A stretch of 54,765 bases of DNA from a virus (lineage: Duplodnaviria > Caudoviricetes), in IMG/VR virus record IMGVR_UViG_3300025769_000149, positions 1 through 54,765 of that record, one strand, 5' to 3'. The translations under genes were made by a program, and so were the position numbers. Below the pieces are notes generated by a model, which did not search any database, was not told the origin of the DNA, and worked only from the letters and a program-made list of their open reading frames with translations. Of the stretch, positions 2,960 through 48,881 are shown piece by piece (position 1 is the stretch's first letter; every line of letters begins with the position of its first letter).

Positions 2960-2996
2960 GCTAACTACTATAATTTAATTTAATTTACTATAATTC

Positions 2997-10089: not shown

Positions 10090-10309
10090 AGAGTTGATCA
10101 AGGTAGCTAAAGAAGCTATTGTTGATTCAGACGATGATATATCAGCTGACAGACTTAAAAACGCCGCTGCCACAAAGAAGCTTGCTATCTTCGACGCCTT
10201 CGAGATATTAAACAGAATCCAAGAAGAAGAAAATCTTTTAGAAGGTAAAGCACCTGAAGAAAAGAAAGAGAGAGTATTTAAGGGTTTTGCTGAGGGTAGA
10301 TCTAAATAA
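10034..10309 (+). CDS. putative terminase small subunit
   Basis: helical 91-aa protein from ATG 10034 (MNIKETKK), TAATG-coupled to terL; call is mainly positional. Confidence 0.5.
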   Translation: MNIKETKKSIIQAGHRAVEELIKVAKEAIVDSDDDISADRLKNAAATKKLAIFDAFEILNRIQEEENLLEGKAPEEKKERVFKGFAEGRSK

Positions 10310-26200: not shown

Positions 26201-28727
26201 ACATAGCAACCCTAGTCTTGGAGCATCAGGTGCTATAACCGTTGCAAATAATACTTCTACCACATACGAAGGCTCTGACGGATCTGGAGGGGCGTGGGAT
26301 TCTACTGCGGATAGCGGTAACTGGACTGTAACTTCAAATACTTTTGACGCTACAATAGGTGTAGCAGAATCAGCTCAGCAAGTTGACTTAACGATAACAG
26401 GTTCTACTTCAGATGGAATACTTGTACAAGCAAGTAATTTTAAAATCGGTGGTGCTACTGAAAGCCCTACAAACACTTGGACTGGTGGCAATGTAGATTC
26501 ACCTATTGCTAAAGTCGTGTTTAGCGATAATGGAGATCCAGTTAACGACGCTCCGAATAACACTGTAAATGCTAAGGTTTATTTAGACGCGTACACACCT
26601 GCTAATTTAAACACACTTTACGTTGATATTGACGAAGGCACTAGACCACCTTCTGCTACAGAAGATAGAGTTGCTTGTTTTAAAGTTATTACTCCATATA
26701 CATATCACGATTCAATTAATTCTAATCAAACAATAACTGTTGAAAATATAACTGATCCAGTTATAACAGAAACTGTTCAGAACGATGGTACGGCAGCTAT
26801 ACAAGCAGGTCTTACGTCTGGAGGTCAAGGTCACTATATAACTGTTCACCAAAGTGAGGTTGTTCAAAGTGATACTACGAATTTGTTAGCTAAATATACA
26901 TTTACGGCAGCTACAAATTACTACTACAGTAATAACATGTCTGTAGATGATTATGTTTCCGCTAACTACAATCCGGGACAAGCCTTTCCTTATGACGAAT
27001 ATTATTCAACCGATATTGAAAAGACTTTTGACGCTGATGGTAATGTAAGTTCTTTTATCGTAAGAGTTTACTATCATCCGCCAAATATACCTGAGTTATA
27101 CCCAGATCCAGCTCTTAGTGATTTTTGTAAAATGAATCATCACTTTATTATTAACTACAATTTAAGAACTAAAGTAGGTTCGGTTGTAGTGGAAGAGGAA
27201 CCAACCTTACAGGGTGTTTCTATGCCGGTTTCTGCCCTGCCGTACAATGGAGGAGAGTATCCTATTATTGTTAAGGGAACTAAGGATACTGATTATAATA
27301 TACGTATTGTACAGACAACCAGCACTAGCAGTGGAATCCCAGCAACAAGTGGTTATTACGACTGGGTGGCTAAGCGTTTTACTACTGAAAAAACAAAAGA
27401 CGAAAATCTTCAGTCGAATAAGTTAGATAAAACTAGAAAAGCCATACACAGAGTTAGTTTTCCACAAGTAACTTCAGACACTAGATACGATATATATATT
27501 GAGAAAGTTAACTTAACAACTGGTAAGATTTCTAAGTTAAACTCAAGAGTACCTATTAAAGCGGGTGACTTAAGTATTACGCAATACGGTGTTAATACAC
27601 TTACGCTAGCATGTACACCACAAGCGCCGTCTAGTTCAGACTATACAACAGCTAACCTGTCAGATGGCTCGGCAACAAACAAAGTGGTAAAACGCCCTAA
27701 GAGGTTTGACGGCGATCTTTACACAAGCGTTAAATATAGGCAAATTGACGTAGCGACAGACGAGGCGTCTTCTAATTCAACCAGATTACTTTTAGAAAAG
27801 TCTAGACAGCTTAATTACATTAAAAGAGGTTATTACGCTATAGGAGAAGGTATACCTCATTTAACTAAAGTTGATAGCATAATAGATCGCGTTGTAACTC
27901 TTAGCGCCGCTGCTACTGTACCTATTTACACGGAGGTAAAGTTTGTAAAAGATTGTCCATCTATTATTCCTTTTGAGTTTAAGGTTACACCATCTAGTAA
28001 TGTACTGTTTGTAAAAGATAAAGAGCGTACAGTGAATCAAGCTAACGCAACTACAAACAAAATAATATTTGACCAAGAAAACTACGTTAGTGACTCTGAT
28101 CAAATACGTGTTGGCGACTTAGTACATGATAGCGACGGTACTCTACATGGTACTGTTACCGCTTTAAACCCTGATAGTGATAACACAAAAGAAATACAAA
28201 TTAGCGCTAGTGCAGCAATTACTAATAACGAAACACTTTACATAAGTACTAAAAACCGAATTGAGTGGCAAGACAGGTTTGTAGGGTTTTCAAAATGGGC
28301 GAGAGCGAAAGCTAATGGAGCTCACGTGTCGGCTGACGGTAATACACTAGACGTTGATAGCTCTAGAGGTGTTCAAATAGCTGATATACTAATAGACCCA
28401 GAAACAGTTGGTAGACCACTTACGACCACCGACGGCTCGCCTAAAATGGTACAATTAGGTCTAGTAACAGCGGTAACAGATACACAGATAACAGTATCTA
28501 ACTTAGGTACGGCTCTAAGTCAAGACGCATACCCAAGTTCTTCAATAGCCGATGATCAAGAGTTATTATTTTACCGAGCTTTAGCACAAACAAGCGCACG
28601 TCCTGTATACATGACGGCTGAAAAAGTAGGTAACGACATTATTATTTCAGGTTATTTACGAGTATCAGACGTAGATAAAACCAGTACAATTGGAGTTTAT
28701 ATAGACGATATAATTACAGCAGTTTAA
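20280..28727 (+). CDS. large tail nozzle/stabilisation (muzzle-like) protein with beta-rich insertions
   Basis: N-terminus GKMNKDFDERLVPDGQYRDALNI; FGNGVESDRIRDDFN, YGISDNPES, FKNKEGKYY; 2815 aa. Confidence 0.8.
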   Translation: MAELKRGFAAGKMNKDFDERLVPDGQYRDALNIQINTSDGSDVGAAQTLRGNTKHDTMVSGSGYYGIPDTATVVGSIANAATDKVYYFVTDGATDIKKDYILEYDLVTEKIKYVFVDIWKVTEQTAAASSSSDNFLYIPVLTIADVTSSNQNITGVRIGMKVTFDSGSLSYNLDDDVRVSDIIFDSGQNRYKIYLEQDGASFTPANGVAESAQINFFGGQVLNFSSHEGENISAINIVDDMIYWTDGRSEPKKINITRCILGTGGTEYAVGGGVDGWSSTSTENTWQTFQGDTPFFHTRLVEKFNSFNSVDDDTSMPEDGMYRIAFQQDRKRVVWMDESHVTVIKKAPTEPLSLDMYRSKENRSSGGEVNPVHTEHDTLSFINEDTEELYVPGDPIEDVYFDSPVDFREGDTILFARQEDAPNATTFEDYSVRCLVTSDGGAEPWDLQTGPFNLEILSISSSLLASDTKWYVRLEEAEPLFEFKFPRFSYRYKYEDGEYSTFAPWSEIAFLPGRFEYQPKEGYNIGMTNQIRKLVIRDYIPADLYMPEDVVAVDILYKETNNPTVYSVRTITPEDAGKLWPVVEGYYYDNDERGEYVLETDLIHAVLPSNQILRPWDNVPVNALAQEITANRLVFGNYRSGYDVRKEPQFTVGYSSKGLDNVYDGGGRQIAREDSVGSDFAWPSVKTMRTYQIGLVWSDRYGRETPVLTAHKAGDEDTNSWASVHVPKEHSHYSNRLTVQLNSGSSWDPPNGSEIPSWAEFYSWYVKETTTEYYNMAMDRWYDAEDGNVWISFPSCERNKIDEESYITLKKAHGSDRIVHDRARYKVIAIENEAPDFIKEQTKSLGIVWNNADKTDIGNSTRGYPLQDHTFILVDSGAFEDAFGDTETWISYPDKMTVRLLGAGQVSEEYLVTNLAKIGSDYKIKIEGKFEDDAGFASTDDTWSGRIVGLGVELLEKKIENKPEYVGRFFVKIRRDHVLQQYVLSANQEADYIVKASWQLRYLCNNGYGNAYWAEDSPGYQQIYPIPEDAKEWGFSPSYATNAQHVYHDDGGDFRVYDWWCTTGAQVREFDNVLGESAAKHPTQYSHHGNYWWADQSEGSVPGNNAHGELKNKHMHMSPILSINDGNADGDQADEFWLHMAGKQDFFIDACTAFSWEGHKTPGGYFGGNIFVDGGGSNYPSTWSNADVANDKEEGAPDWEGHDTCFANMKKDHGMPSRGIWNGGSCIDISWTGMGEGYDGSNWSDKPFPQRLQDVGGDIYEAAARFIELLATPGTMWRFQKDPDEVVYTSEDFANYPTFGYPAPGTANSFFKSGTNYLSGAFGIRNWSTAGSDKKQYYGHNIRQRWTIMVTPEIGSGPSGYMPTTGTNANAETQVPALKHDAWDADVIEIVERYYDPESGKHFSKNPAIWETEPKEDVELDIYWEASPKCPLYLTPETKENFVQRGDTFVKHTDINNPEAQVYKVLRWSNGSADSHTFDFTTIENWPSGPSSQYGLTEGMSKIALTRRGRYTRILDINTASANDTSITLRSTGSTWDDIQYNPIYSKQYLDWSNCWSFGNGVESDRIRDDFNQPQLDNGVKASATIAEPIRRENKKNGLIWSGMYNDTANVNNLNQFIAGENITKDLNPAHGSIQALVNRETRVAIFCEDRVLRAETNRDLLYNADGNPQVVASNAVIGDVVAYQGNYGISDNPESLAVTPYRCFFTDRRRGVVLQLTTEGITPISSQGMIDYFGDIFDEDVYQCLGLYDENKKEYNLSIKKKYSGYNHHPGTSAFSSTTLAWSEMASGWASFRSYVPEDGVTINNKFFTFYNGHVWKHHAETAEDSTTVPRNNFYGTQYTSNITIPFNAEPESVKGFTAINYEGSIAKITNFDTEDAHAEGTTNDNWLTGVYSSNNGIEAGRTVTDGEYYNIEDTVNGWYVESINTNLQECGTIEFKNKEGKYYGQIAGVTTTLGNLDEREFSVQGLGSATILHSNPSLGASGAITVANNTSTTYEGSDGSGGAWDSTADSGNWTVTSNTFDATIGVAESAQQVDLTITGSTSDGILVQASNFKIGGATESPTNTWTGGNVDSPIAKVVFSDNGDPVNDAPNNTVNAKVYLDAYTPANLNTLYVDIDEGTRPPSATEDRVACFKVITPYTYHDSINSNQTITVENITDPVITETVQNDGTAAIQAGLTSGGQGHYITVHQSEVVQSDTTNLLAKYTFTAATNYYYSNNMSVDDYVSANYNPGQAFPYDEYYSTDIEKTFDADGNVSSFIVRVYYHPPNIPELYPDPALSDFCKMNHHFIINYNLRTKVGSVVVEEEPTLQGVSMPVSALPYNGGEYPIIVKGTKDTDYNIRIVQTTSTSSGIPATSGYYDWVAKRFTTEKTKDENLQSNKLDKTRKAIHRVSFPQVTSDTRYDIYIEKVNLTTGKISKLNSRVPIKAGDLSITQYGVNTLTLACTPQAPSSSDYTTANLSDGSATNKVVKRPKRFDGDLYTSVKYRQIDVATDEASSNSTRLLLEKSRQLNYIKRGYYAIGEGIPHLTKVDSIIDRVVTLSAAATVPIYTEVKFVKDCPSIIPFEFKVTPSSNVLFVKDKERTVNQANATTNKIIFDQENYVSDSDQIRVGDLVHDSDGTLHGTVTALNPDSDNTKEIQISASAAITNNETLYISTKNRIEWQDRFVGFSKWARAKANGAHVSADGNTLDVDSSRGVQIADILIDPETVGRPLTTTDGSPKMVQLGLVTAVTDTQITVSNLGTALSQDAYPSSSIADDQELLFYRALAQTSARPVYMTAEKVGNDIIISGYLRVSDVDKTSTIGVYIDDIITAV

Positions 28728-32088: not shown

Positions 32089-35000
32089 ATGAATCCAGAA
32101 CTAGAACGTCTTGTTCAAGAAAAGATTGATGCCGCGAAAGCTGCTAATGAGGGTGTGTTAAGCGAAGAAGCTAAAGCTGACATAATGAAATTCGTACAGC
32201 AGTACAAAGAGGACGAGCAGATAAAAAAAGATCAAGACTCTCAGCCAGGCCCAGGCGGGGAGTCAACGACTTCAGGGCAACCAGACGCTTCACAGTCTAC
32301 TACGGAAGTGAGTACAGACGACTCTTCATTGGAGCAAGAAGATGAGGATCAAGTAGTTGTAGATGGTGATAGTGAAGAAGAAGTTATAATTGAAGACCAA
32401 AACCAAGAGGAGGAGGTTGTAGTTGAAGAGCAACAAGATCCACCTAAAATTATTTCAGATAGAGGAGATGGATGGGAGTATAAAAGAGAAAACGGCATAT
32501 ACTACACTAAAAAAGCAGGTGCGTCAAGTTGGACGAAAACTTCAGGAGATGTAGCTAATACAATAGCCAAGGAGATGTTCCCTGAGTACGGAGAATTTGT
32601 AGACAAAGTTGATGCTGATTATGTTGAAGGCGATGGTGCGGATCAGCCGGGTATATTTGAGGGTATTGAGGATAAATTCACTCAAGACCTTAAAACTAAT
32701 ATTAAACGAGAGTATGAAGGTGAATCTAACTACTCTTCTTCTACTGTAGCTGGAGATTTTAAGGGCACCGCAGCTTTTCCTAACTTACAAGCAAGTCACA
32801 GCAACGATAATAGATATTACGTCGAACACGCTGCTGTGTTTAGACCAGACGGTGGATATTTAACAATATCGGACGATGATGAAACAGGTATAGATCGCAC
32901 TGTAGATAATGTTACAGAATGGTATAATACTGGCGATAACAGTCAAATAGCGTCTAATCCTATATGGTCTTTGTTTGAAAGGAAAGATAATGGTAACGCA
33001 GACCCAGCATTTGGTGGTTCTGAAGCTATATTTGGCATGGCTAAAAATAAGGCGGGCGAAGAATACGGCTATCAATTTAATGATGTTGAAGGTATGAACG
33101 AGGCACTTAGTGTTTCTGGATATACTATTGAACCAATTTATCCCGTGCAATATATGAGCAAAAACATACACGGTGAATATATGCTTGATCAATGGTCTAC
33201 TAATAATAGATACAACCAACAAAAAGGAAGACATGGAGTAGTTATAAGAGGATATAGAGTATTAAAAGACGGCGAAGTTGTTTTAGGAGAAGCTCCTGAA
33301 GGTTTTGAAGGCTACAATCCTAACCCTTTAGGTGAAGATGAAGCTAATGAAATTGGTGGTACGATGAACAATAATTACGCTGGCGTAAGTAGTGCTGAAG
33401 TACAAAACTATTTTTGGAACTTAGCGAAAGATTTTCATGAAGAAAATGGATTTGGCTATGATGATGAAGGTAATCCTACCGTAAACTTTCTGCAAAAGTC
33501 AAGAGAGTATATGGTTGGAAGAGAAGCTGAAGTACTTAGTGGCATTGATGCTGAGCTGTCTGACTTTGAAGATAAATACATTATCACTCGTGATGATCCA
33601 TCAACGCTTGACATAGATGAAACAGAATACAGCGACACTGCTACTAGGTTAGCTTTTAAAAACAACGACATTCTAACGAAGGATGTGGTTGGTGTTATAC
33701 TAGAAGGCTCAGACTTACCACAAGAAGAAGTAGATTTAATAAGCAATTATTTTAACGAACCTATATACTACACAACAAAGACAGAGAAGAATATAAAGGG
33801 AAGGACGTTCGTCGAAACTAAAGAAACACTAGCTTCAGATTGGCAAAAGCAAAGGCTTGACAACGTGCTTGAGTCTGACATGTATAAGAGCTTATCGCCT
33901 GAAGGTCAAGAGGTAGTTAGAAATTCATTGACAGCAGGATCTGAGATGATAGACATCATGGTAGGCGCTGCTGTAGACGAACAGGTTGCTAGACGTAAAA
34001 GTATATTGCTTGAAAGAGAAATAGCAAACTCTCCTGACGCTAATATAGTAAGAGGTGTTATAGACGAAAAAACAGCGCCTCACAATATACAAGCTAAGAT
34101 CAATGCTTTTAGTGCGAGACAATCTACTATTGAAAACCATTTAAAGCAAAAGAGTGACACTTTAGCCACAACTATCAATGGCGCTTTAGCTGATGTTGCT
34201 GAAGCAGGATATGGATATCATTCTGAGGGTAATGTTGAAGATGGTACATTTAGGCTTATAGTAGATATGCCTGAAGATGGTAGCGAAGAGGATCGCAAGG
34301 TGTTTCAGAAGAGAATTGACGACTTATATGGTCAATACGAGACTATAAATTCAGACTATATGAATGGTCTTAGAGGTGAAATGCTTAGCTACTTGGAGTT
34401 TGTTAATGAAACTCAAGACAATGCGGCAACGCTTGCTACTGTTTCAAAAGAATTTGATGAGCGCGACGTTCAGTGGAAAGACTGGATGGACGCTTGGAAG
34501 GGTATGTGGTGGGGTACTACGGCTTTTTTTGGTAGCGAAGAAGGTATGGCGGGCTTGCAAAGAATAGATGACAGAGGCGAGGTATATAGAACCATGCTTA
34601 CTGGTAGTGAGGCTTGGGCTATTGGTCAGAAAGGTGAGTATGCGTCTAGAACTTTCACACAGCAATTACCAAACCTACTTGTAGCTGTCGGTACAGGTGG
34701 TGTAACTTCTACTGGGTTGAAAGCGCTTGGAGCTTCAGCTAATGTTATAAAATACGGAAGCTCAGCAACCACTGGTTTTGGTGTATTTGGAACTGGATCT
34801 GCAGGCCAAAAGAAAAAGCAGATATACGACATGCGTACTGCTGGAGAAGAGGCTCAAAAGCAACTTACTAATTTAGAAGCGCAATATAAAAACGGCGATG
34901 TCTCAACAGCTGAATATTTAGTACAAAAGGGGCAGTTAGAAAAAACTATTGCTCTTGGAGATATAGATGATACAGAACTGTATACAGCTATGGCTTCAGC

Positions 35001-38000
35001 TCTTGTTATTGAAGGTGGTGTAACTACGTTCTTTGGTACAGCTATAAACTCTCAAAAGTTATTAAAAGCTTTTGGAGGTGAAGTTGATGACGTACTTAGA
35101 ACAGCAACTAATACGTGGTATCAAAACGTAGGTAGAGGTATTTTTGCTACTGCTAAGGAAACAGGTAGTGAAGTTATTGAGGAAAGCTTAATATTCTTTG
35201 GAGATCAAATGGCAGGTAGTTTAATACTAGGCCAAGACGCGGATTACTCTGGAGCTCTTGACGTAGTTATGTCTTCTATTATATCAGCTGGCCCAACTCA
35301 AGGTTCAGGTAACGTGTATAACGCGTTTACGTCTACAATGGCAACTAGTGATACTAGAGCTGTCTATAATGACGTAATGACGAACCTAGACATGATTACC
35401 GCCAGCATGGAAAGAGCCGCAACACCAGCTGAGAAAGCAGCTCTTAAAGTAGATTATCTTCAAGAGGTAGGTAGACTATCTAACCTGCAAGCCGGTTTAG
35501 AGCTTGACGTTTTGGTTGGTGGTTCAAAGACCTTGAAAACCACACTGGAAGCTAATAAAGCTTTATTAAAAATACATCAAGAAGCTGGTATTAAAGGATC
35601 TGATTCGCAAGCTACAATAGATAAAAAACTAAAGGCGTATAGAGCTACACTAAGCGGTGGTGATTTAAAGTCTTTTGATCAAAGATTATCTAGCGCTCAA
35701 AATAGAATTAGCCAAACACATGCCGAGGTTGCTCAGGCGTACGAAGACGGTAATGTGGTAGAAGATGTATATGGCGAAGAAGGATTAAAGGTACAAGAAA
35801 GATTATCTAAAAAACCTGGTTGGGAGCAGTTGTCTAACAGAGAAAAAGCTGTTGCTGTTCATACTGAAATGCAGCGTAAAGCTAGAAACAATAGAATCAA
35901 CTCACATCGTAAAGATGAGAAGTTAATGGACTACGTAGAGCTGCAAGTTTATGGAGGTAAGTTTAGCGAAAGCGGTAGAAAAAACAGAAACCGTAAAGCA
36001 GAAGATGCTATAATAGACAGGTACGCTACTGATCTTCAAGTTCGTAAAGGTTGGACTACTATGCAAGCTCGTGAGGGTAACGTATCTTTAGAATCTATAT
36101 TAGCTGACCCAAGCGTCGCTGGTAACTTTGAGGTAATACAAGCGGACTCTAACGAGGACTTAATGGCAAAGCTTAAGCAAGAGTTTGATAATGGTAATAT
36201 TACTGAAGACGAGTATAACGCGCTTAGAGATGATATGCAAGACATGTTTAAGTCTTCTACTAAGGATGGTGTTGAGTTTGGTGCTATTGTAGGTGGTAAG
36301 TATATAACTATGGCTGATACACAGCAGGTCCAAGACGCGTTAGATAACGGGGAAATGCTTCAGGGTACAGTAGCTCTTCACGAGGGTACTCACGCTATAG
36401 ATGTATTAAGCGGTATGAACGCTGAGGGTCAGATGGAAAACTTTGCCGTAAATTTACAGCAAGGTTTAGCTGCCGATGAAAATCTTAGATGGGTGGATCA
36501 ATCTGCTAGAGATAGAGTTAATGCGTTAAATCTTGAACCTGGTAGTCAAGAGTATTACGACGAGTACACAAAGTCTGTTCAAGATATACTTGGTAATAAG
36601 TACTACAAAAGTGAGTTTAACGCTGCTAAAAAAGCTGCTGGTAGAACTAGTTTACGCAACTGGTACAGAATGTCTACAGGTAAAGGCTTTACAATAAAGA
36701 CTGGCAAGGACGCACTTAATTTTATGGTAAGTAATATTGAAGCGTTTAGAAACGGCGAGGTTTCGAAGCTTACAAAAAGTAGAATTGAGGGCACGCTTGA
36801 TGGAGAGACTAGTAAAAAGAGATTTTCAAGATCTGGGCAAGAGGCATCTGAACGTGTGCAAGCTCTATACGAAGATCAAGGCGTAGGTGCTGCTATGGAT
36901 ATTATAGATGAGTTTGGTGCTAGAGTGAACAAGCTAGTTAATAAGTACCAAGATGTACCTGGCTTTGATAGGCAGTTACTGACAGATGAAATCAACACTG
37001 GTAGAAGAGGTATACTTGATATGATATTAGAGTACGATCAAGACGCAAATCCTGGAGTACCTGTTGCTGCTTATATCAATAAGTTCTTAGACAGAAGAGC
37101 TATTGAAGCTGCTAATAGAATACTTAAAACAGATTTTGAATCTGATGTTACTGAAGCTAGAGGCATAGCTGCTGAAGAAACAGCTGACGTAGATATACAA
37201 ACAAGAACTAGAGAGGGTATAAGGTTAGGTGATAGATTTGGAGAGAGAGGGCAAAGTATGCACGACAGCGTTGTTGAACGTGTTAAGAATGGAGACATCG
37301 ATACTGATGGTAAATCTTATAAAACATTAGGTAATGCTTTAGTAGACGAGACACAAGTCATGTTTGGTGTATCGCCTAAGCCTGGTAACCTTACTAAAGG
37401 TGATGTAGCTAACGCTCAAAACTTTATTCTCAAGCATGCCGATACGTTATTAGCGATGCTTCCAGAAGGAACAGATAGCTCTGGTAAATCAACAGGTGTT
37501 AATAAAGTTTTATTAGAATCTTTATATACTAAAGGCTCTAGAGTTTCCGCCTCAAAGACTGGGAGCAAAGCTGGTCTAGCAGCTCAAGTAAAACGAGGCG
37601 ATATAACAAAGCAAGAATTTTTAGAGATATTTGGTATTACACCGGCTGGTACGCCTAATGTAAGTGATCGTAACACTAGCGCTAGAGTAAAAGCGTTAAT
37701 AGATCAAACAGGCAAGGCAATAACTAATCAAGCCGCTAAAGAAGCTTTAATACAAAATGGTGAGGAAGGTGCTTTTGCGTTTGAAGACGGTAAATCAAAA
37801 GTGCTTTATTCTAAGACGCTGTTAGACACTTCAACAAAGTACCCTAAAATAGCTCAAGCAGTACTTAATAGATTGCATAGACCTGAAGGTTTAGATATAA
37901 TTAAAAGCTTGTCAGGCAATGTTAAGGGAGCTTTCAATAGCTTGTTTACAGAAGATGATATAAAAGCAATGGCTATGGACCAGTTTGGAAAAGCTGGTAA

Positions 38001-41000
38001 TAGAGAAATTAAACTAGTTACAGAAAGGCTAAACAAAATAGGTACGGAAATACAGGCTCTACACGATCAGTATAGCAAGTATCTTGATATTCAAGATCAG
38101 ACAGACTTTGTCATGATTGATACGCCTATTGAAGAAGTAATTCTCGGTCACGTAATTAATGATTCAACTGAACATAGACAGTATTACAAAACTATAATAG
38201 GCGCAGAAAACGAGCTGGATATGAGAAATCCAGAGCACAGAGACTTAGCTAGAAACGCTACTGGAAAACTGGCTGCCAAGTTTAGCCCTGAGTTTAATGA
38301 AAGGTTTTTAGTACCAGGTTTATCAGCTGCTACAAATCCTAAGCGAGGGTATTTCGTAGACGGTGTAGATGATACTAGGCTTTTAGTTGGTTCTAAAAAA
38401 GGTGAGACTGGTAAATACTCTAAGCCACCTTCAGGCTATATGAAGGGAAAGCTTGATAACGATGGCGTAAACAAAATAAAAAACAATAAAGCCGTAGTTA
38501 AAGCCCAGCAAGAAAACAATCAAGCGTTTAGACAGGTTGTTGAGGAGTTGAGGAATATGGTAGCCAATGGTGAAATAACTTTAGGTCAAGCAACAGCTAT
38601 ACTTCAGGTTATGAACGCAAACCAAAAAGGTTTAACTAGAGCTTCTGCTATATTAGACTTTGTTCCTTCAAAAAAGTTTAAAGGTCCAGCTACACTTGAG
38701 CATATGACACCAGCGCTGCAAGTAAACTTACAAGCGTTAAGATATATAGCAACTGGTGACGTTGATCAGAAAACAATGTTTGATCAAACTATGGATAACT
38801 ATAGGTTAGCTTATCTACCTGAAAAGTATGACAAGATTGTAAACTTATTCTACAAGTCAACCGTTCCTTACTGGCAGACGCCAGACATGTCTCCACTTGG
38901 TAGATACTACGGACCACAACTTCTTGCTGCTGGTTTTGATTTAGAGCTAGACATGATGTCAACTGGCGTTACGGTCGGTGGCGATGCTGGTATAGATATT
39001 AAAAACTGGAGAAAAGCTAACACTGGTAGAAAGAAAGCGCTAGGTAATTTAGCTGCTAACACTGATATAGCTACTGATCAAAAAACAGTTAATGACGCTA
39101 GACAAGCCGTTAAGTTTTCTAGATCTGGTAAAGTAAAAGGTATGACCGCGTGGGATTTTGACGACACGTTGGCTACTACGAAGTCTAATGTTATATTTAA
39201 TAAGGATGGTGAAACAAAAATAGTAAGCGCTGAAGACTTTGCAAAAGAAGGCGCTGGCTTAGTGGCTGACGGTTGGATACCGGACTTCTCTGAGTTTAAC
39301 AAGGTGACAGGTGGTAAACCTGGACCTATGTTTGATAAAGCTATGAGGCGTGCTAAAAAGTATGGTACAGAAGATACATACATACTTACCGCGAGAGCGC
39401 CTGAGGCTGCGCCTGCTATTAAACAGTTCTTAGACGCGCTAGGTTTAAATATACCACTTAAAAATATTACAGGATTAGGTAACTCTACTGGCGAGGCAAA
39501 AGCTAGATGGCTGTTAGATAAACACGCACAGGGATATAACGACATCGCGTTTGTTGATGACGCTATGCAAAACATTGATGCCGTAAACAAAGTGTTTAAT
39601 CAGTTTGATATTAAAGGTAAAGTTGAATTAGCTAAAACTAAGTTTAGTAGATCTGCGCCAACTGAGTTTAGTAAAATATTAAGTGAAGGCGAAAAAGATT
39701 TAAACGACGACTTTAATATTGTACTAGAAGAGTCTAAAGACGTAGGTAAAGAAAAAACTTTTTCTACTGCTAAAGCTAAACAACGCGGTAAAGGCAAAGG
39801 TAAGTTTAAATTTTTCTTGCCTCCATCTGCAGAAGACTTTAAGGGTTTAATATATCCTTTCTTAGGTAAAGGTAAGGTTGGTGAGCAGCACCATAAGTGG
39901 TTCAAAGAAAATTTATTTGACCCTTATTCTAAGGGTATGAAAAGAGTTAACGCTATTAAGCAAGAGGTTTCTTCGGATGTTAGAGCTTTAAAGCGTAATA
40001 ACAAAGATGTTACCAAAAAACTAAAGAAAAAAGTACCTGGCACAGACTTTACGTACGAGCAAGCTATAAGAGTGTACAACTGGAACAAAGCTGGTTTAGA
40101 CGTACCGGGTTTATCTAACGCTGATCTTAAAGCTTTAAACAAAGCTGTAAATGATAACCCTACTATAAAGCTTTTTGCAGAAGGTTTAGCGCAAATACAG
40201 AGCAAACCAGGCGCGGACGTCGATGTCAAGGAAGACTGGTTAGCGGGTACAATCACGTCTGACATGGTTGAGCTTATAGATCAGTCGAGAGACATGTTAC
40301 TTCAAGAGTTTAACGACAACGCTGATGTTGTGTTTAGTGAGCAGAACTTAAATAAAATAGAAGCTGTGTTTGGTTCGCGACATAGAGAGGCTATAGAAGA
40401 TATACTGTACCGCATGAAGACTGGTAGTACTAGAAACTTTGGCTCTAACAGAATACTCAATGACTTTATGAATTGGGTTAACGGTTCTGTTGGTACTACA
40501 ATGTTCTTTAACGCTAGATCAGCTGTGTTGCAGATGATCTCTAACGTCAACTTTATAAACTGGCACGATAACAACCCGCTAAAAGCCGCTAAAGCCTTTG
40601 CCAACCAAAAGCAATATTGGGGTGACGTAGCTATGATATTTAATTCACCTACGTTAAAACAAAGACGTGGTGGTATCGGCACTGACTTAAACGCGGCTGA
40701 GCTTCTTAAAGACTTAGAAAAGTCTGACAATAAGATGAAGGTAGTTACAAGCCATTTACTTCAGCTTGGTTTTACACCAACGCAGATAGCGGATAGTTTG
40801 GCTATTGCTACAGGTGGTGCTACAATGTACAGGAATAGAATCCAAACGTATTTGGATGAAGGTATGAGTCAGAACGAGGCTGAGTCTAAAGCTTTTGAAG
40901 ATATGATGGACATAGCTGAAGAAACTCAGCAGTCTACTAGACCAGATAAAATATCTCAACAACAAGCCTCTCCACTTGGTAAGTTAATACTTGCTTTCCA

Positions 41001-42033
41001 AAATACACCAATGCAATACAACAGAATCATGAAGCGCGCTGCGCAAGACATGGTTAATGGTAGAGGTGATCCAAAAGAACATATTTCAAAAATTATCTAC
41101 TACGGTGCTGTACAAAGCATGATATTCTATGGTCTTCAAACAGCGCTATTTAGTGTTATGTTTGGTGATGACGAGGAAGAAGACGATTTAGATACTAAAA
41201 AGGAAAGAGTAGTTAACGGTATGTTAGATAGCATACTGCGTGGAGCAGGTATTGCAGGCGCTGTAGTATCTACAATAAAGAACACTATACTAGAGCATCT
41301 TGATCAAAAGGCAAAAGAAGACGATGATATATACTTTACAGAGTATAATGAAGCTGACGTACTTATAGAAGCCCTTAATCTCTCGCCACCAATAGGTATT
41401 AAAGCTAGAAAGTTAGTTAGTGGTATGCGTACTTGGGAGTACAATCAGGACGTAATAGATCACATGTCTAAAACTGATATCGACAATCCTATTTACGACG
41501 CTTCATTCTCTGTAACAGAGGCTGTAACTAACATACCCTTAAGTAGACTTCACAGCAAATTTGAGAATCTTAGAGAAGCTATGGACTCTGATAACGAAAC
41601 CTGGAAACGTGTTGCCATGTTCTTAGGTTGGAACAAGTGGAGTTTTGGTATTAAAAACCAAGATGTGGTAGATGCCAAGGGTGAAATTAAAGCAATCAAA
41701 GACGTAGAGAAGGAAGAAAGAAGAGAGCAGAAGAAAGTAGAAAGAGAAATAGAAAAAGCTGCTGAAGAAGAAGCTGAGATAGAAGATAACATGCTTGATC
41801 AGGACGAGCAGAGAGAAGAGGGTGCTGAAGAAGTTCAGTGCGCGGCTGTTAGTGGATCTGGCAAACGTTGCTCTAACATGGCTTTACCTGGTAAAAACTT
41901 TTGCACTATACACGAGCAGGTTGAACAACGTGAAGACGGTAAAGAAGTTCAGTGCTCACATATAAAATCAAACGGCGAGCGCTGTAAAATGAAAACAAAA
42001 AATAACTCAGGAAAATGTTACTACCACGATTAA
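32089..42033 (+). CDS. giant multidomain internal virion (polyvalent-type) protein
   Basis: 3314 aa; Gly/Ala membrane-like segments, HEGTH zincin, sigma-region-2-like segment, HAD domain (DFDDTL, LTAR, FVDD), two C-terminal Cys3His Zn fingers. Confidence 0.8.
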   Translation: MNPELERLVQEKIDAAKAANEGVLSEEAKADIMKFVQQYKEDEQIKKDQDSQPGPGGESTTSGQPDASQSTTEVSTDDSSLEQEDEDQVVVDGDSEEEVIIEDQNQEEEVVVEEQQDPPKIISDRGDGWEYKRENGIYYTKKAGASSWTKTSGDVANTIAKEMFPEYGEFVDKVDADYVEGDGADQPGIFEGIEDKFTQDLKTNIKREYEGESNYSSSTVAGDFKGTAAFPNLQASHSNDNRYYVEHAAVFRPDGGYLTISDDDETGIDRTVDNVTEWYNTGDNSQIASNPIWSLFERKDNGNADPAFGGSEAIFGMAKNKAGEEYGYQFNDVEGMNEALSVSGYTIEPIYPVQYMSKNIHGEYMLDQWSTNNRYNQQKGRHGVVIRGYRVLKDGEVVLGEAPEGFEGYNPNPLGEDEANEIGGTMNNNYAGVSSAEVQNYFWNLAKDFHEENGFGYDDEGNPTVNFLQKSREYMVGREAEVLSGIDAELSDFEDKYIITRDDPSTLDIDETEYSDTATRLAFKNNDILTKDVVGVILEGSDLPQEEVDLISNYFNEPIYYTTKTEKNIKGRTFVETKETLASDWQKQRLDNVLESDMYKSLSPEGQEVVRNSLTAGSEMIDIMVGAAVDEQVARRKSILLEREIANSPDANIVRGVIDEKTAPHNIQAKINAFSARQSTIENHLKQKSDTLATTINGALADVAEAGYGYHSEGNVEDGTFRLIVDMPEDGSEEDRKVFQKRIDDLYGQYETINSDYMNGLRGEMLSYLEFVNETQDNAATLATVSKEFDERDVQWKDWMDAWKGMWWGTTAFFGSEEGMAGLQRIDDRGEVYRTMLTGSEAWAIGQKGEYASRTFTQQLPNLLVAVGTGGVTSTGLKALGASANVIKYGSSATTGFGVFGTGSAGQKKKQIYDMRTAGEEAQKQLTNLEAQYKNGDVSTAEYLVQKGQLEKTIALGDIDDTELYTAMASALVIEGGVTTFFGTAINSQKLLKAFGGEVDDVLRTATNTWYQNVGRGIFATAKETGSEVIEESLIFFGDQMAGSLILGQDADYSGALDVVMSSIISAGPTQGSGNVYNAFTSTMATSDTRAVYNDVMTNLDMITASMERAATPAEKAALKVDYLQEVGRLSNLQAGLELDVLVGGSKTLKTTLEANKALLKIHQEAGIKGSDSQATIDKKLKAYRATLSGGDLKSFDQRLSSAQNRISQTHAEVAQAYEDGNVVEDVYGEEGLKVQERLSKKPGWEQLSNREKAVAVHTEMQRKARNNRINSHRKDEKLMDYVELQVYGGKFSESGRKNRNRKAEDAIIDRYATDLQVRKGWTTMQAREGNVSLESILADPSVAGNFEVIQADSNEDLMAKLKQEFDNGNITEDEYNALRDDMQDMFKSSTKDGVEFGAIVGGKYITMADTQQVQDALDNGEMLQGTVALHEGTHAIDVLSGMNAEGQMENFAVNLQQGLAADENLRWVDQSARDRVNALNLEPGSQEYYDEYTKSVQDILGNKYYKSEFNAAKKAAGRTSLRNWYRMSTGKGFTIKTGKDALNFMVSNIEAFRNGEVSKLTKSRIEGTLDGETSKKRFSRSGQEASERVQALYEDQGVGAAMDIIDEFGARVNKLVNKYQDVPGFDRQLLTDEINTGRRGILDMILEYDQDANPGVPVAAYINKFLDRRAIEAANRILKTDFESDVTEARGIAAEETADVDIQTRTREGIRLGDRFGERGQSMHDSVVERVKNGDIDTDGKSYKTLGNALVDETQVMFGVSPKPGNLTKGDVANAQNFILKHADTLLAMLPEGTDSSGKSTGVNKVLLESLYTKGSRVSASKTGSKAGLAAQVKRGDITKQEFLEIFGITPAGTPNVSDRNTSARVKALIDQTGKAITNQAAKEALIQNGEEGAFAFEDGKSKVLYSKTLLDTSTKYPKIAQAVLNRLHRPEGLDIIKSLSGNVKGAFNSLFTEDDIKAMAMDQFGKAGNREIKLVTERLNKIGTEIQALHDQYSKYLDIQDQTDFVMIDTPIEEVILGHVINDSTEHRQYYKTIIGAENELDMRNPEHRDLARNATGKLAAKFSPEFNERFLVPGLSAATNPKRGYFVDGVDDTRLLVGSKKGETGKYSKPPSGYMKGKLDNDGVNKIKNNKAVVKAQQENNQAFRQVVEELRNMVANGEITLGQATAILQVMNANQKGLTRASAILDFVPSKKFKGPATLEHMTPALQVNLQALRYIATGDVDQKTMFDQTMDNYRLAYLPEKYDKIVNLFYKSTVPYWQTPDMSPLGRYYGPQLLAAGFDLELDMMSTGVTVGGDAGIDIKNWRKANTGRKKALGNLAANTDIATDQKTVNDARQAVKFSRSGKVKGMTAWDFDDTLATTKSNVIFNKDGETKIVSAEDFAKEGAGLVADGWIPDFSEFNKVTGGKPGPMFDKAMRRAKKYGTEDTYILTARAPEAAPAIKQFLDALGLNIPLKNITGLGNSTGEAKARWLLDKHAQGYNDIAFVDDAMQNIDAVNKVFNQFDIKGKVELAKTKFSRSAPTEFSKILSEGEKDLNDDFNIVLEESKDVGKEKTFSTAKAKQRGKGKGKFKFFLPPSAEDFKGLIYPFLGKGKVGEQHHKWFKENLFDPYSKGMKRVNAIKQEVSSDVRALKRNNKDVTKKLKKKVPGTDFTYEQAIRVYNWNKAGLDVPGLSNADLKALNKAVNDNPTIKLFAEGLAQIQSKPGADVDVKEDWLAGTITSDMVELIDQSRDMLLQEFNDNADVVFSEQNLNKIEAVFGSRHREAIEDILYRMKTGSTRNFGSNRILNDFMNWVNGSVGTTMFFNARSAVLQMISNVNFINWHDNNPLKAAKAFANQKQYWGDVAMIFNSPTLKQRRGGIGTDLNAAELLKDLEKSDNKMKVVTSHLLQLGFTPTQIADSLAIATGGATMYRNRIQTYLDEGMSQNEAESKAFEDMMDIAEETQQSTRPDKISQQQASPLGKLILAFQNTPMQYNRIMKRAAQDMVNGRGDPKEHISKIIYYGAVQSMIFYGLQTALFSVMFGDDEEEDDLDTKKERVVNGMLDSILRGAGIAGAVVSTIKNTILEHLDQKAKEDDDIYFTEYNEADVLIEALNLSPPIGIKARKLVSGMRTWEYNQDVIDHMSKTDIDNPIYDASFSVTEAVTNIPLSRLHSKFENLREAMDSDNETWKRVAMFLGWNKWSFGIKNQDVVDAKGEIKAIKDVEKEERREQKKVEREIEKAAEEEAEIEDNMLDQDEQREEGAEEVQCAAVSGSGKRCSNMALPGKNFCTIHEQVEQREDGKEVQCSHIKSNGERCKMKTKNNSGKCYYHD

Positions 42034-43803: not shown

Positions 43804-44175
43804 ATGGAAACAGATACAATGAACTTTGGAACAGTGATTGCATACATATTCTTAATGTTATGTATGTTCGCAGCTGGTACAGCGCTTGGGCAGAACATGT
43901 GTAATAGTGATATTTGTGTTGTGCAGTTTAACGCTAGTTGGAACGAGAGCAATAGTGTAGATTATCTTGATGAACTCACTGATTGCAACGTTATGAACGT
44001 CAACATAGATGAAGGTACTTATCAATCTGATTACAAGATAGTTGTAGTGCCTACGATTATAGTATTTAACGGAGAAGAGGTTGAGAGGTTTCAAGCTAAT
44101 ATTATGATGCAAATGGATGCTACTAGGAAAGACGTGCAGAGTGTTGTCGATGAAATAATCTATAGCGATTTTTAA
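43804..44175 (+). CDS. exported thioredoxin-fold protein lacking CxxC
   Basis: signal peptide; VVQFNASWN in place of FxAxWCxxC; cis-Pro loop VVPTIIVFNGEEVERF. Confidence 0.7.
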   Translation: METDTMNFGTVIAYIFLMLCMFAAGTALGQNMCNSDICVVQFNASWNESNSVDYLDELTDCNVMNVNIDEGTYQSDYKIVVVPTIIVFNGEEVERFQANIMMQMDATRKDVQSVVDEIIYSDF

Positions 44176-44588
44176 TGGAGAAGTATATATACAAAGCTAA
44201 ACTAGAAAGAGTCGTTGACGGTGATACTATTGACGCTCTAATAGATTTAGGGTTTGATACGTGGGTGAAGAAGAGGATTAGATACAAAGGTATTGATACA
44301 TGGGAGTCGCGAACGAAAGATTTAGACGAAAAAAAATTAGGTCTCGCCGCAAAGGATCGCAACAAAGAGCTTTTGGAGTCAGTAAGTTCCAAACCAGGTT
44401 GCTTCAGATTAAGAAGTCACGGCGTAGGAAAGTACGGTAGAGTACTTGGTGAGATCTTTGTTAAAGATATAGAAGGAATAGAATATAATGTTAACCAAAC
44501 ATTGATAGACGAAGGCCATGCGTATGTTTACGATGGTGGTAAAAAGAAAATGTTTGTCAATAAAGAAAGTAAAAAGAACGTATTATGA
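44175..44588 (+). CDS. thermonuclease (SNase-family) nuclease
   Basis: RVVDGDTID, IRYKGIDTWE, GKYGRVLG, LIDEGHA. Confidence 0.88.
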   Translation: MEKYIYKAKLERVVDGDTIDALIDLGFDTWVKKRIRYKGIDTWESRTKDLDEKKLGLAAKDRNKELLESVSSKPGCFRLRSHGVGKYGRVLGEIFVKDIEGIEYNVNQTLIDEGHAYVYDGGKKKMFVNKESKKNVL

Positions 44589-44734
44589 TTGATTGGATTA
44601 ATGGCTTTGATGCCGGAAACAAAAAGGAAAAGTATTTTTTAGAATTTAGATTAGGAACCCTAACTCTATTAGAGATTAAGTGGGAAGCTAAGAAGTTTAG
44701 GTTTATGATATTCAACTTAGGATTTGAAGTATGA
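44585..44734 (+). CDS. small hypothetical protein (49 aa, absent from the ORF track)
   Basis: MIDWINGFDAGNKKEKYFLEFRLGTLTLLEIKWEAKKFRFMIFNLGFEV; ATGA overlaps at both ends. Confidence 0.65.
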   Translation: MIDWINGFDAGNKKEKYFLEFRLGTLTLLEIKWEAKKFRFMIFNLGFEV

Positions 44735-47028
44735 AAAAGCTAGGTTACTTATTTGTAATACTATTTTGGTTATTAGCTAGTTCAGTATTAGGACAAGGTA
44801 GTTGGCTGGACATTACTGTACAGACAGATAACTATGCGGCTGAAACATCATGGGAGATATTAAACGAAGACGAAGAAGTTGTTGCTGTTAATCCTCCATA
44901 CCAGGACAATAGCTTATTAACTATAACAAAGTTTTTACCTGCTGGTGATTACCAGTTTGTAATGATGGACTCTTTTGGTGATGGTATATGCTGTGGCTTT
45001 GGCGAAGGTTTTTATAGACTGCACAACGCTTGCGGTTTAGATACAGCTAACTATGAGTTTGCTACCGCCGTTGACACTATAGACTTTACACTTAACCCTT
45101 GCTTACCGCTAGTACCAGGTTGCACTAATGATCTAGCGAACAACTATAACCCATGGGCCACTGTTGAAGATGGCACGTGTAACGTAATCGAGTGTGACTC
45201 AGCTGAGACGCTGGTGTCTATGGAGTTAACGTTAGACACTTGGCCTAACGAAACTGGTTTTACATTAGTTGATTTAGCTGTTGGTCAGTTTTACGAACAG
45301 GTGTTTCCTGGTGAGTACAATTTCGGTGACCAGCTCGTTACGTATACATACGACTTTTGTGTATCACTAGGTTTTGAGTTGATACTAGTAGATACGTTTG
45401 GTGATGGACTAAATGGTTCAGCATCAGGTGGTGAAGACGGAGCGTGTGTTATTACAGCTTGTGATAGTGTTATATGGGAGCTAGAAGATTTAGCGTTTGA
45501 AGAGTTTGACGGTGGCACAATGTACTCTGGTGCTATATTTACTGAGCCGTGTCCACCTGCACCTGATGTGCCTGGTTGCATGGACGACGATTATGTAGAT
45601 TATAACCCATTAGCTACAGTGCAAGACACCTGCGAAACTTTACACGTATGGGGTTGCACAAACCCTGAGGCATTTAACTACGATAGCTTAGCTACTATAT
45701 CAGATAACAATAGCCCTTGTGCTATTAACGTTACTATTGAAGACGATGGCGGTGATGGTTGGGGTAACTCAAAGCTAGGTATGATACAAGGTGATCAACA
45801 GTGGTTGTTTACTATGGGCCCTGGTTCGTTTGAGCAGTCATGGACTATCGACTTAGACTCTGACGCAGAGGTAAAGCTTTATTACTTTCAACAAGGTAAT
45901 GCTCAGCAATCAGCTCAAGAGTTAGCGTTCCAGACTCTACATAACTCTGTATTGATTACTAACGAAGCTGGTGATACATTATTATCTGAGGGTACAAACC
46001 CTTTCTTTGATAACGGACAGGGTGCGTTACAACCGTTTGACGAACCTAACTGGACTACATATAGCTTTGTACCTTACTGTGGTGATAGCTGTGAGCCTTT
46101 TAGCTACGGATGTACAGATATGATGGCGCAGAATTACAATGCTGATGTAAACACGGAGGATGGTAGCTGCTACTATCAAGCTGGTTGTACTCAAGCAGGT
46201 TACTTAGAATATTATACACAAGGATATGAAGCTGACTTTGATAACGGTAGTTGTAATACTCTCGCGGTATTTGGCTGCATGGATAGCGAGGCTTTTAACT
46301 ACAACCCAGAGGCAAATGTAGATAACGAAGGTTGTATACCTGTAGTACTAGGCTGCACGAACCCACTTGCCTTTAACTATAACTCGGCTGCTAATACCGA
46401 TGATGATAGCTGTATACCCTTCATCTACGGTTGCACAGACGCAATGATGTTTAACTATGATCCAGAAGCTAACGCTGAAGATGGTAGCTGTATTCCTTAC
46501 ATTTATGGTTGTACTGATGTGTACGCCTTTAATTATGATCCGTTGGCTAATACTGACAATGGCTCGTGCGAGGAAGTGGTGGTCGACTGTATGGACCCGC
46601 TAGCCTACAACTACAACGAACTTGCAAACGAACCTGCAGACAATTGTTTATACGACGCTGGTTGTGTAACAGGACCTGGTGAACCTTACTGGTTAAACGA
46701 TATGTGTTATGCTTGGGTTATTCAAGCGGATCCATTCTGCTGTGATGAAGCGTGGGATGCTACGTGTCAAGATACATATAACTACTGTTCATCTACAGGT
46801 ATAGAATCCATATTAGCTGGTGAAGACTTAGTTGTCTACCCAAACCCAGTTGGTAACGTGTTAAACATAAATCAAAAAGTTGACATAGACGTGATCGATT
46901 CAAACGGACGTATCATAGTATCTAAAACAAATACGAACGCGATAGACGCGTCCCTATGGCCTCCAGGAATGTATATGGTACGCATTGTTTGGAACGGTCG
47001 CGTTGTTGTCAAGAAGATTATCAAATGA
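44731..47028 (+). CDS. T9SS (Por secretion) cargo protein with Cys-rich repeats and a type A C-terminal sorting domain
   Basis: signal peptide; about 10 GC[TM]xxxAxNYxxxAxxDxGSC-type repeats; CTD VYPNPV...IDSNGR...PGMYMVRI...KKIIK. Confidence 0.88.
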   Translation: MKKLGYLFVILFWLLASSVLGQGSWLDITVQTDNYAAETSWEILNEDEEVVAVNPPYQDNSLLTITKFLPAGDYQFVMMDSFGDGICCGFGEGFYRLHNACGLDTANYEFATAVDTIDFTLNPCLPLVPGCTNDLANNYNPWATVEDGTCNVIECDSAETLVSMELTLDTWPNETGFTLVDLAVGQFYEQVFPGEYNFGDQLVTYTYDFCVSLGFELILVDTFGDGLNGSASGGEDGACVITACDSVIWELEDLAFEEFDGGTMYSGAIFTEPCPPAPDVPGCMDDDYVDYNPLATVQDTCETLHVWGCTNPEAFNYDSLATISDNNSPCAINVTIEDDGGDGWGNSKLGMIQGDQQWLFTMGPGSFEQSWTIDLDSDAEVKLYYFQQGNAQQSAQELAFQTLHNSVLITNEAGDTLLSEGTNPFFDNGQGALQPFDEPNWTTYSFVPYCGDSCEPFSYGCTDMMAQNYNADVNTEDGSCYYQAGCTQAGYLEYYTQGYEADFDNGSCNTLAVFGCMDSEAFNYNPEANVDNEGCIPVVLGCTNPLAFNYNSAANTDDDSCIPFIYGCTDAMMFNYDPEANAEDGSCIPYIYGCTDVYAFNYDPLANTDNGSCEEVVVDCMDPLAYNYNELANEPADNCLYDAGCVTGPGEPYWLNDMCYAWVIQADPFCCDEAWDATCQDTYNYCSSTGIESILAGEDLVVYPNPVGNVLNINQKVDIDVIDSNGRIIVSKTNTNAIDASLWPPGMYMVRIVWNGRVVVKKIIK

Positions 47029-48557: not shown

Positions 48558-48881
48558 ATGGCATTAACAAATCCGTATACAGGTATTTATGATATAGACA
48601 GCGTCTCAAGCGGTGTCACAATGATTAATAAGTTTTCAAATAAAGGTAACTTAAACTCCATTAGTATATGTAATCAACACGCGTCAACTACCGCTGTTGT
48701 TACGTTGTATCTTGACGATGGTCTTGGCAACGATAATTCTGATGTCCACATAATTAACGCTGTGTCGATACCAGCTGGAACAACATTGGTGCTTGACGGT
48801 AACGTTAACTTTAACAACGACACGTACGATTTAAAAATAACTAATACAGGTGGTGTACCGCTTTCTATAATAACAAGGTAA
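48558..48881 (+). CDS. small beta-rich virion protein
   Basis: SISICNQH...VSIPAGTTLVLD. Confidence 0.65.
   Translation: MALTNPYTGIYDIDSVSSGVTMINKFSNKGNLNSISICNQHASTTAVVTLYLDDGLGNDNSDVHIINAVSIPAGTTLVLDGNVNFNNDTYDLKITNTGGVPLSIITR

Follow-up and report, generated by a model that had tools for sequence, protein, structure and literature searches.

Protease-site codes, in which a short word marks each junction of a chain, are known from picornavirus 3C sites, from the L/I-x-E sites of T4 gp21 and from the S/A/G-x-E sites of phiKZ gp175, and they have in common that the words lie in flexible linkers and vary between lineages together with the protease. Here we describe what may be a related arrangement in a giant open reading frame (ORF) carried by IMG/VR virus record IMGVR_UViG_3300025769_000149, a stretch of 54,765 bases (~94% complete according to CheckV) that is referred to below, at its full length, as the window. 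As in those codes, a recognition word stands at the module junctions of the encoded protein of 3314 amino acids (aa), in predicted linkers, and this word varies by lineage and does so in concert across junctions. The arrangement differs from the codes of viral polyproteins and phage heads in its candidate protease, which would be a zincin inside the substrate chain itself, in the word, which reads [FY]-S-[KR]-[ST], and in being known from sequence alone.

Polyvalent proteins, which are among the largest and commonest unexplained phage proteins, provide a further comparison. Iyer et al. 2017 (PMC5512222) predicted that such proteins are autoprocessed by their zincin domains, without proposing a site motif, and since 2017 the idea has stood without one mapped site. 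The giant protein resembles them in being a giant chain of phage origin that combines many unrelated enzyme-like domains with an HExxH domain and is presumably delivered with the DNA. It differs from them in that it has no Pfam polyvalent-protein or MPTase family match at E<=1, and in its junction word and the co-variation of that word, neither of which is described in the main text of PMC5512222. The junction motif was also not found in the other literature searched. The tie to this group of proteins comes from Foldseek searches of BFVD with the AlphaFold2 (AF2) model of the HAD cassette and C-terminal domain, which returned 37 matches to parts of viral proteins (E<=0.001, probability 0.99-1.00), some of which bear names such as PolyVal ADP-ribosyltransferase, ART-PolyVal-like, MuF C-terminal and large polyvalent protein associated domain; one match is annotated as 'Structural protein' of Tenacibaculum phage Gundel_1.

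The virion RNA polymerase (vRNAP) of phage N4 is likewise a giant (~3500 aa) ejected virion protein, in which an HExxH subdomain, C1, is followed by a large, mostly helical C2 without structural relatives (PMC13434306). The giant protein described here matched no Pfam or PHROG family, and hence no RNA-polymerase family, and PDB sequence, profile and Foldseek searches yielded no sequence or fold match to N4. Its gene position, in turn, recalls that of the crassvirus cargo proteins (Bayfield et al. 2023, PMC10172136). These large proteins are kept in the virion until they are ejected ahead of the DNA and in crAss001 are encoded by genes after the muzzle gene, and the giant ORF comes directly after a muzzle-like giant gene. 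Its product and the cargo proteins of crAss001 have no sequence family in common (0 PHROG families), proteolysis or cleavage is not mentioned in the parts of PMC10172136 covered here, and the genome differs from those of crassviruses in measuring only 54.8 kb and in having its nearest terminase relatives among Flavobacterium and Cellulophaga phages. On balance we give about an even chance to the reading that the giant ORF, in a crass-related phage of marine Bacteroidota, encodes a virion cargo protein of the polyvalent kind whose processing word is specific to its lineage.

Concerted change of the junction word

The protein (Table 1) is made up of a lineage-specific N-terminal part with a gluzincin-type domain, three exchangeable cassettes (modules B and C and a HAD phosphatase-type cassette) and a conserved helical C-terminal domain followed by zinc ribbons, each module ahead of a junction ending in a linker, probably flexible, that bears the word in the forms RFSRS, LYSKT, KFSRS and KFSRS at junctions J1 to J4, respectively. 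At least five modules can be told apart, each with a separate conservation pattern and a separate domain in the AF2 models. The motifs listed in an earlier note on this DNA are all present, in frame and at the coordinates given there, within this one ORF, and the two KFSRS copies bracket the HAD domain with different Ser codons as that note had described: the HAD motifs between residues 2356 and 2488 lie between the copies, the first Ser of which is encoded by TCT in one and by AGT in the other.

The main new result is that lineages departing from FS[KR] do so at several junctions at once. Paired junction words read FSQ and FSQ in P0007 and P0008, YSQDT and FSQDV in P0025, FSRKA and FSRKA in P0064, SENPT and SENPS in L012, RSIEY and KSIEY in L021, KNSKD and KNSKD in L074, and KSSNR and KASNR in L027, while FSE is found at three junctions of L016 and ESK at four junctions of L071, L135 and L153. 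Concertedness was scored as the best ungapped 5-mer match between the segments before and after HAD (n=125). Segment pairs from the same protein had a mean of 15.53, as compared with 13.58 for shuffled pairings, the same-protein value being reached by 0/5000 and 0/3000 permutations, whereas four control segments elsewhere in the same proteins showed no excess (z 0.1-1.2).

The codons used at the junctions bear on how this agreement arose. In eight of the 10 lineage pairs that share a Ser, one junction has a TCN codon and its partner an AGY codon, and across the family the Ser is encoded by AGY at 39/43 post-HAD sites and by TCN at 34/47 pre-HAD sites. When 9-nt flanks are included, only 12-19 of 33 or 36 nt are identical in the 10 pairs other than L037. 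The differing Ser codons and the low nucleotide identity therefore indicate that the agreement is not due to gene conversion. L037 is the exception, since its two HAD-flanking junctions share 25/33 nt including the same codons, which would fit a cassette gained recently, or a conversion event, at this locus alone. The junction word is kept and changed by selection on the protein, and this points to one reader of all junctions; we consider it very probable that the word has a function as a signal and that a single factor reads it.

The word is conserved across a large family: a search with aa 1380-2700 that scored 8000 candidates gave at least 1155 relatives at E<=0.001, and 469 loci were confirmed in an IMG/VR scan. 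Such relatives are abundant in marine samples of the Tara type. In what follows, counts out of 120 are among the 120 matches listed, with BLASTP coverage taken per region; the other samples are 146 representatives, 80 IMG/VR loci and the alignments A1 (40 rows), A2 (36 rows), A4 (46 rows) and A3. The strict form (K/R)FSRS, by which the earlier note had supposed the domains to be delimited, is limited to the closest relatives. The part of that claim that stands is the presence of a word at the module boundaries, conserved far beyond close relatives as hydrophobic-[FY]-S-[KR]-[ST] with lineage dialects. At J4 the HAD cassette ends in Q-Q-A-K-V-K-F-S-K, with F in 112/120, S in 119/120 and K/R in 99/120 homologues. 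At J2, relatives end module B in G-K-S-x-x-M-F-S-[KR], and the YSK listed in that note, being part of LYSKT at this same module end, is indeed a fourth copy of the word. The J3 linker reads x-F-S-[KR]-[ST], and across the 146 representatives [FY]S[KR] occurs 90 times within a stretch of 40 residues ahead of the HAD motif; J1 takes the form [FLMY]-S-[KRT]-x-A-S in relatives, and other cassette types end in F-D-I-I-Q-F-S-K. Over the 146 representatives FSK occurs 368 times, compared with 104.5 expected from composition.

Within this protein alone the repeat is not clearly above chance, and the signal is comparative: some 4-mer occurred at least three times in 1651/2000 shuffles, the real protein having five such 4-mers, and the pre-specified [KR]FSRS was found at least once in only 7/2000. 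FS[KR][ST] is absent from the other coding frames of the window, the sole extra match on the + strand, at 20138, being out of frame with ORF 19332-20276, and [FY]S[KR][ST] is absent from the N-terminal region of the giant protein (aa 1-1385).

Homology breakpoints coincide with J2, where 77 BLASTP high-scoring segment pairs (HSPs) end (aa 1900-1919), and with J3, near which 41 HSPs start (aa 2310-2339). In the AF2 model of aa 1331-2354, for which the predicted local distance difference test score (pLDDT) averages 72.5, J1 lies within a segment of pLDDT<50 (240-254 in model numbering) and J2 overlaps another (561-578); in the other AF2 model, the stretch from HAD to the helical domain in which J4 lies is of low confidence (block pLDDT 51-62). 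The comparison of motifs with domain boundaries in homologues that the earlier note had proposed thus supports the word at J1 and J2 (linkers) and at J2 and J3 (breakpoints), and does not extend to the bare FS[KR] 3-mer, as discussed below. Two more F-S copies lie within 45 residues after J4, namely EFSK at aa 2526-2529 and KTFSTAKAK at ~aa 2557-2565. The latter is nearly invariant in the family as K-R-F-S-x-x-K-A and, being unchanged in the ESK lineage (KRFGAAKA in L071), is probably structural.

The zincin-like domain and its possible link to the word

The domain ahead of J1 contains HEGTH and, downstream, a candidate third ligand in Glu1492. H1431, E1432, H1435 and E1492 are invariant in all 36 rows of A2 and all 46 of A4, in keeping with the earlier description of a modular chain that carries a zincin signature. 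The zincin region is too diverged across homologues for BLASTP alignment; even so, a single HExxH occurs in every one of the 120 homologues listed, always some 800-1130 residues ahead of the HAD motif. HExxH is present in 73/80 IMG/VR loci; among the seven others, four have ORFs truncated by the 5' end of their locus, the L075 ORF begins within the domain, and L016 and L071 read HHDxxH. In the AF2 model HExxH (model 101-105) falls in helix 98-111 and E1492 (model 162) in helix 157-172, within blocks of pLDDT 81-94.

Database matches to this domain were below threshold. A Pfam scan of 46 members returned, all under cut-off, Peptidase_M78 in 5/46 (best E 0.0034), M4 in 2/46 and Tox-MPTase3 in 2/46, and the giant protein itself had no Pfam peptidase match at E<=1. 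PDB searches with the giant protein (phmmer) and with profiles of A2, A3 and A4 gave nothing informative beyond sub-threshold matches of A4 to the thermolysin family (aureolysin E 0.11, thermolysin E about 0.55-0.6). Foldseek of the multi-domain model that holds the zincin domain was uninformative, returning helical-repeat noise only; for the two multi-domain models together, the matches in the PDB were confined to such noise and weak HAD matches. Because its peptidase matches are sub-threshold, we call the domain a gluzincin signature and a candidate peptidase rather than a proven one.

In L016, L071, L135 and L153, HHD(A/G)(F/L)H replaces HExxH (HHDAFH in L016, HHDGLH in the L071 group) and the downstream Glu is kept, so these domains may be either rare natural active-site variants or inactivated. 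The two lineages concerned, FSE (L016) and ESK (the L071 group), are the only ones with HHDxxH, and their words are altered at all junctions examined. The family is highly mosaic. In the pairs L048/L049 and L126/L128, the C-terminal blocks (HAD and C-terminal domain) are 95% identical, the zincin regions are 16-18% identical, and the J4 words differ. J4 similarity is correlated with zincin identity when identity of the HAD-to-C-terminal block is controlled (partial Mantel r 0.169, 0/2000 permutations, n=231), and among pairs with C-terminal block identity >=0.70 mean zincin identity is 0.30 for 2764 same-word pairs as against 0.25 for 1311 different-word pairs, a small effect, with neither comparison being independent of phylogeny. 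We therefore regard the zincin-word link as suggestive, not decisive. A complex prediction that paired A4, for the zincin, with an alignment of the J3 linker (A5) scored 0.00, 'no answer', and was used neither for nor against the link.

Besides the small size and phylogenetic dependence of this effect, a number of observations weigh against a word that is cut by the built-in zincin. The zincin assignment itself rests on motifs and helix placement, with every Pfam and PDB match below threshold. The L071 group amounts to three sequences that are 94-96% identical, and the ESK lineage therefore counts as one event. Many HExxH proteins carry non-canonical words, which makes the zincin-motif link loose. 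The zincin-bearing vRNAP of N4 is packaged unprocessed (Iyer 2017, PMC5512222), so a zincin alone does not imply processing, and the 2026 N4 structure paper names the HExxH subdomain, with no proteolysis found in the parts of it covered here (PMC13434306). As to the word, the residue after FS is not always matched between junctions, L048 and L057 reading FSR before HAD and FSN after it, and there are copies of FS[KR] within folded domains as well, as in DFSEFSKV of HAD and IFSKENLNK of the C-terminal domain, so that the 3-mer alone is not specific. The pLDDT<50 at J3 is partly an artefact, as both AF2 models end there. Finally, no cleavage product, N-terminus or proteome is on record for any family member, and tblastn searches of 50,697 phage records with aa 1301-3314 and 2342-3204 found no relative of the giant protein, giving a single weak match to HAD only.

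Possible processing by a built-in protease, and rival explanations

The sequence comparisons show the anatomy of the chain, a word that is conserved and placed at boundaries, selection on the protein and concerted change; proteolysis is what we infer from them, and the enzyme, the scissile bond and the moment of cutting (in the head or after ejection) belong to that same inference. The word would be a processing signal read by one co-evolving factor, most likely a protease, with the zincin encoded in cis as the first candidate, and the chain would then be cut into about five pieces of about 1580, 328, 436, 176 and 794 residues. That the junction word is a cleavage site is, on these sequence comparisons, a proposition for and against which we see roughly equal grounds, and that the cis zincin is the protease falls somewhat short of that. 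A choice of scissile bond, between F and S or between x and F, was dropped, as it is not inferable from these data.

A more ambitious version, which we put forward tentatively and consider rather unlikely as a whole, holds that junction word and built-in zincin form a co-evolving protease-site pair, a private 'cutting code' with a dialect in each lineage (FS[KR]; FSE, ESK, FSQ, SENPS, SIEY). A cassette that gained the local word at its end would thereby be freed as a factor in the host, and the two HHDxxH lineages would represent natural specificity switches. If this were true, exact cut sites could be given from sequence for thousands of uncultured marine phage proteins, together with a rule for the recruitment of new injected effectors.

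The protease could instead act in trans, as an unrecognised head-maturation protease, the small HExxH protein encoded at 6853-7227 or a host protease, leaving the built-in zincin with another job such as attack on a host target or encapsidation, as proposed for the C-terminal domain of N4. A second, small HExxH protein does exist in the window, the many HExxH-bearing relatives with non-canonical words indicate that the motif need not follow the cis zincin, and alternative roles of MPTase domains are listed in Iyer 2017 (PMC5512222). Nevertheless, the other proteins of the window lack the word, even those of the capsid, portal and candidate scaffold ORFs, which would be expected as targets of a general maturation protease; no prohead protease family was detected among the window ORFs; the cis zincin is the sole element that always travels with the motif; and the HHDxxH lineages have a changed motif. 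We judge cutting in trans decidedly unlikely. The word might also remain uncut within a chain that works as one piece, like N4 vRNAP. It would then be a docking or hinge peptide that, for example, helps the protein to pack against the portal or the inside of the capsid, engages the phage chaperonin or lets the chain unfold in order during ejection. Any shared binding partner would likewise produce concerted evolution, and this phage encodes a GroEL. N4 vRNAP, with its zincin-type subdomain and large helical C-terminal domain, is not known to be processed (PMC13434306), and in crassviruses short segments of a single chain of the cargo protein gp45 bind both the portal and the tail barrel (PMC10172136). 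Yet a docking signal would not have to mark all module boundaries, among them the ends of cassettes gained and lost between relatives, and the flanks of the word are low-confidence linkers, not interfaces, so that an uncut peptide of this kind appears unlikely.

The remaining explanations dispense with a reader of the peptide. DNA-level recombination joints used in cassette swaps, with the peptide as a by-product of a conserved joint, could hold alongside cleavage and would suit the mosaicism of the family noted above and the 25/33 nt shared by the junctions of L037; against them stand the use of TCN versus AGY Ser codons in 8/10 Ser-sharing pairs, the 12-19 of 33 or 36 identical nt outside L037, the systematic difference in Ser codon class between the two HAD-flanking junctions, and the poor quality of 4-5-codon words as recombination substrates, and we hold them to be very improbable as the explanation. 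Least credible of all, in our view, is that the junctions have no common function, FS[KR] being a frequent structural cap at domain ends that repeats by chance. It is true that a 4-mer occurring three times is expected by chance in a protein such as this one (1651/2000 shuffles) and that FS[KR] is found within domains as well, but the word is common to unrelated module types, its dialects shift together at two to four junctions within a protein, the codons differing, and the within-protein excess is missing from the four control segments.

Processing of the chain by one reader, probably a protease, is thus the account that we prefer. What this finding adds is a large marine family with a dialect of its own, codon evidence against gene conversion, control segments, and two active-site variants with changed words. 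The family offers defined junction peptides, natural dialects, two active-site variants for the study of specificity, and predicted fragment sizes. Settling whether the chain is processed would define which modules (the HAD phosphatase, the possible sigma-like module and the module with the E-H motif) act free early in infection of marine Bacteroidota.

Modules, family and gene neighbourhood

Conservation is uneven along the chain. The N-terminal region, before ~aa 1400, aligns in 4-28/120 homologues, module B (aa 1550-1900) in 94-118/120, with 64% mean column identity in A3, module C (aa 1910-2340) in about 29-73/120, and the C-terminal core (HAD and helical domain, aa 2350-3200) in 116-120/120, the helical domain being the most conserved part of the family. 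The whole protein matches no Pfam family above cut-off and 0 PHROGs. Module B had been described as sigma-like, a label that the Pfam and PDB searches did not support: Sigma70_r2 (PF04542) was absent from the protein, from the whole record and, at E<=10, from 14 module B sequences, and no sigma factor was among the PDB profile matches at E<=10. The label rests on a weak lead from an Atlas embedding search, in which Sigma70_r2 clusters made up 5/30 feature matches (score 0.92, 108 shared features), and is unverified, as is 'effector', these being labels for two of the modules. Module C looks like an uncharacterised enzyme-like cassette, with no family in Pfam, PDB or Atlas (best Atlas score 0.83); in the E-H of its LEHMTP motif, H2205 is invariant and E2204 nearly invariant in A2.

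The HAD cassette contains DFDDT at 2356, LTAR at 2433, GEAKA at 2468 and FVDD at 2488, and motifs I-IV (DFDDT, T-A-R, K and DD) are invariant in 40/40 rows of A1. In the AF2 model its strands alternate with helices (pLDDT about 70-87), Foldseek gave weak matches to HAD structures (4fyp_B, probability 0.90, E 1.1), and the only Pfam match, DUF2608 (E 0.0046), is under its cut-off. Precomputed annotations place Zeta_toxin (PF06414) and AAA_33 (PF13671) kinase domains beside HAD in P0073, P0131, P0208, P0214, P0216, P0231, P0234 and P0237-P0239. A kinase and a HAD domain in one chain recall kinase-phosphatase end-repair enzymes, which we take as a hint at the function of the HAD cassette. The helical domain and zinc fingers of the earlier note were borne out, the former as an all-alpha domain in the AF2 model that has no fold match in the PDB, the latter as two Cys3-His units at the C-terminal end, present in about 48-54/120 homologues. 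These units gave a weak match to Pfam DUF5763 (E 0.17), and several homologues carry a precomputed PF19067 annotation.

Gene fission at the junctions was considered and is not counted as evidence. Short database proteins start M-S-K-x-A-S at J1 (P0128, P0166) or just before HAD (P0198, P0225), and may owe these starts to errors in gene calling: the 17 IMG/VR relatives that were checked are all fused, three of them (L099, L133, L158) have an internal M-S-K at J1, and the six IMG/VR ORFs with <700 residues before HAD all run off the 5' end of their locus.

Table 1. Features of the giant ORF, its junctions and other genes in the window, with nucleotide positions, strand and residues.
Feature	Position (nt)	Strand	Residues	Remarks
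GroEL-type chaperonin	2997-4568			PHROG match, E 7e-135
Small HExxH protein	6853-7227			Two PHROGs without known function, otherwise no named family
Terminase large subunit	10309-12525			Structural block
Portal	12528-14903			Structural block
Capsid-like 'virion structural protein'	16140-17621			Structural block
Muzzle-like giant ORF	20280-28727	+	2815 aa	Pfam crAss_MUZ_C match
Giant ORF	32089-42033	+	3314 aa	Putative polyvalent-type virion cargo protein (ORF list and translation)
N-terminal region	32089-36243	+	1-1385	Acidic start, then largely lineage-specific
Zincin-like domain	36244-36816	+	1386-1576	Gluzincin signature
HEGTH motif	36379-36393		from 1431	
Third-ligand candidate	36562-36564		Glu1492	
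Junction J1, RFSRS	36820-36834	+	1578-1582	Between zincin and module B; AGATTTTCAAGATCT
Module B	36835-37806	+	1583-1906	Earlier called sigma-like
Junction J2, LYSKT	37804-37818	+	1906-1910	End of module B; YSK at 37807-37815 (aa 1907)
Module C	37819-39111	+	1911-2341	Fold family unassigned; LEHMTP at 38695-38712 (aa 2203)
Junction J3, KFSRS	39112-39126	+	2342-2346	5 residues ahead of first HAD strand; AAGTTTTCTAGATCT
HAD phosphatase-type cassette	39127-39639	+	2347-2517	
Junction J4, KFSRS	39640-39654	+	2518-2522	After HAD cassette; AAGTTTAGTAGATCT
C-terminal all-helical domain	39655-41778	+	2523-3230	With hydrophobic helices
Segment with two further F-S copies	39655-39800		2523-2570	EFSK and KTFSTAKAK
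Two Cys3-His zinc-ribbon-like units	41839-42027	+	3251-3275, 3289-3313	Pattern C-x9-C-x..-C-x2-H
SNase-type nuclease	44175-44588			
T9SS C-terminal sorting domain protein	44731-47028		765 aa	
M15 peptidase (cell-wall)	48881-49342			
Ribonucleotide reductase	49861-51726			

The structural block of the window contains several further PHROG 'virion structural' proteins. Neither the interval between portal and capsid nor any other scanned ORF matched a canonical prohead protease or a scaffold family in Pfam or PHROGs, and the same databases identified no endopeptidase family in the other window ORFs, where the M15 peptidase and the small HExxH protein are what remains. The 2815-aa ORF preceding the giant gene matches the Pfam crassvirus muzzle C-terminal domain at E 5e-06 (27.3 bits, cut-off 27) and a PHROG virion structural protein. 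The nearest relatives of the terminase (87 records) are from Flavobacterium, Cellulophaga and Tenacibaculum phages, and a late gene carries a type IX secretion system (T9SS) sorting domain; the host is therefore probably a marine member of the Bacteroidota. Judging from the muzzle C-terminal match and the terminase neighbours, the phage would be a small (54.8 kb) marine relative with a crass-like tail architecture.

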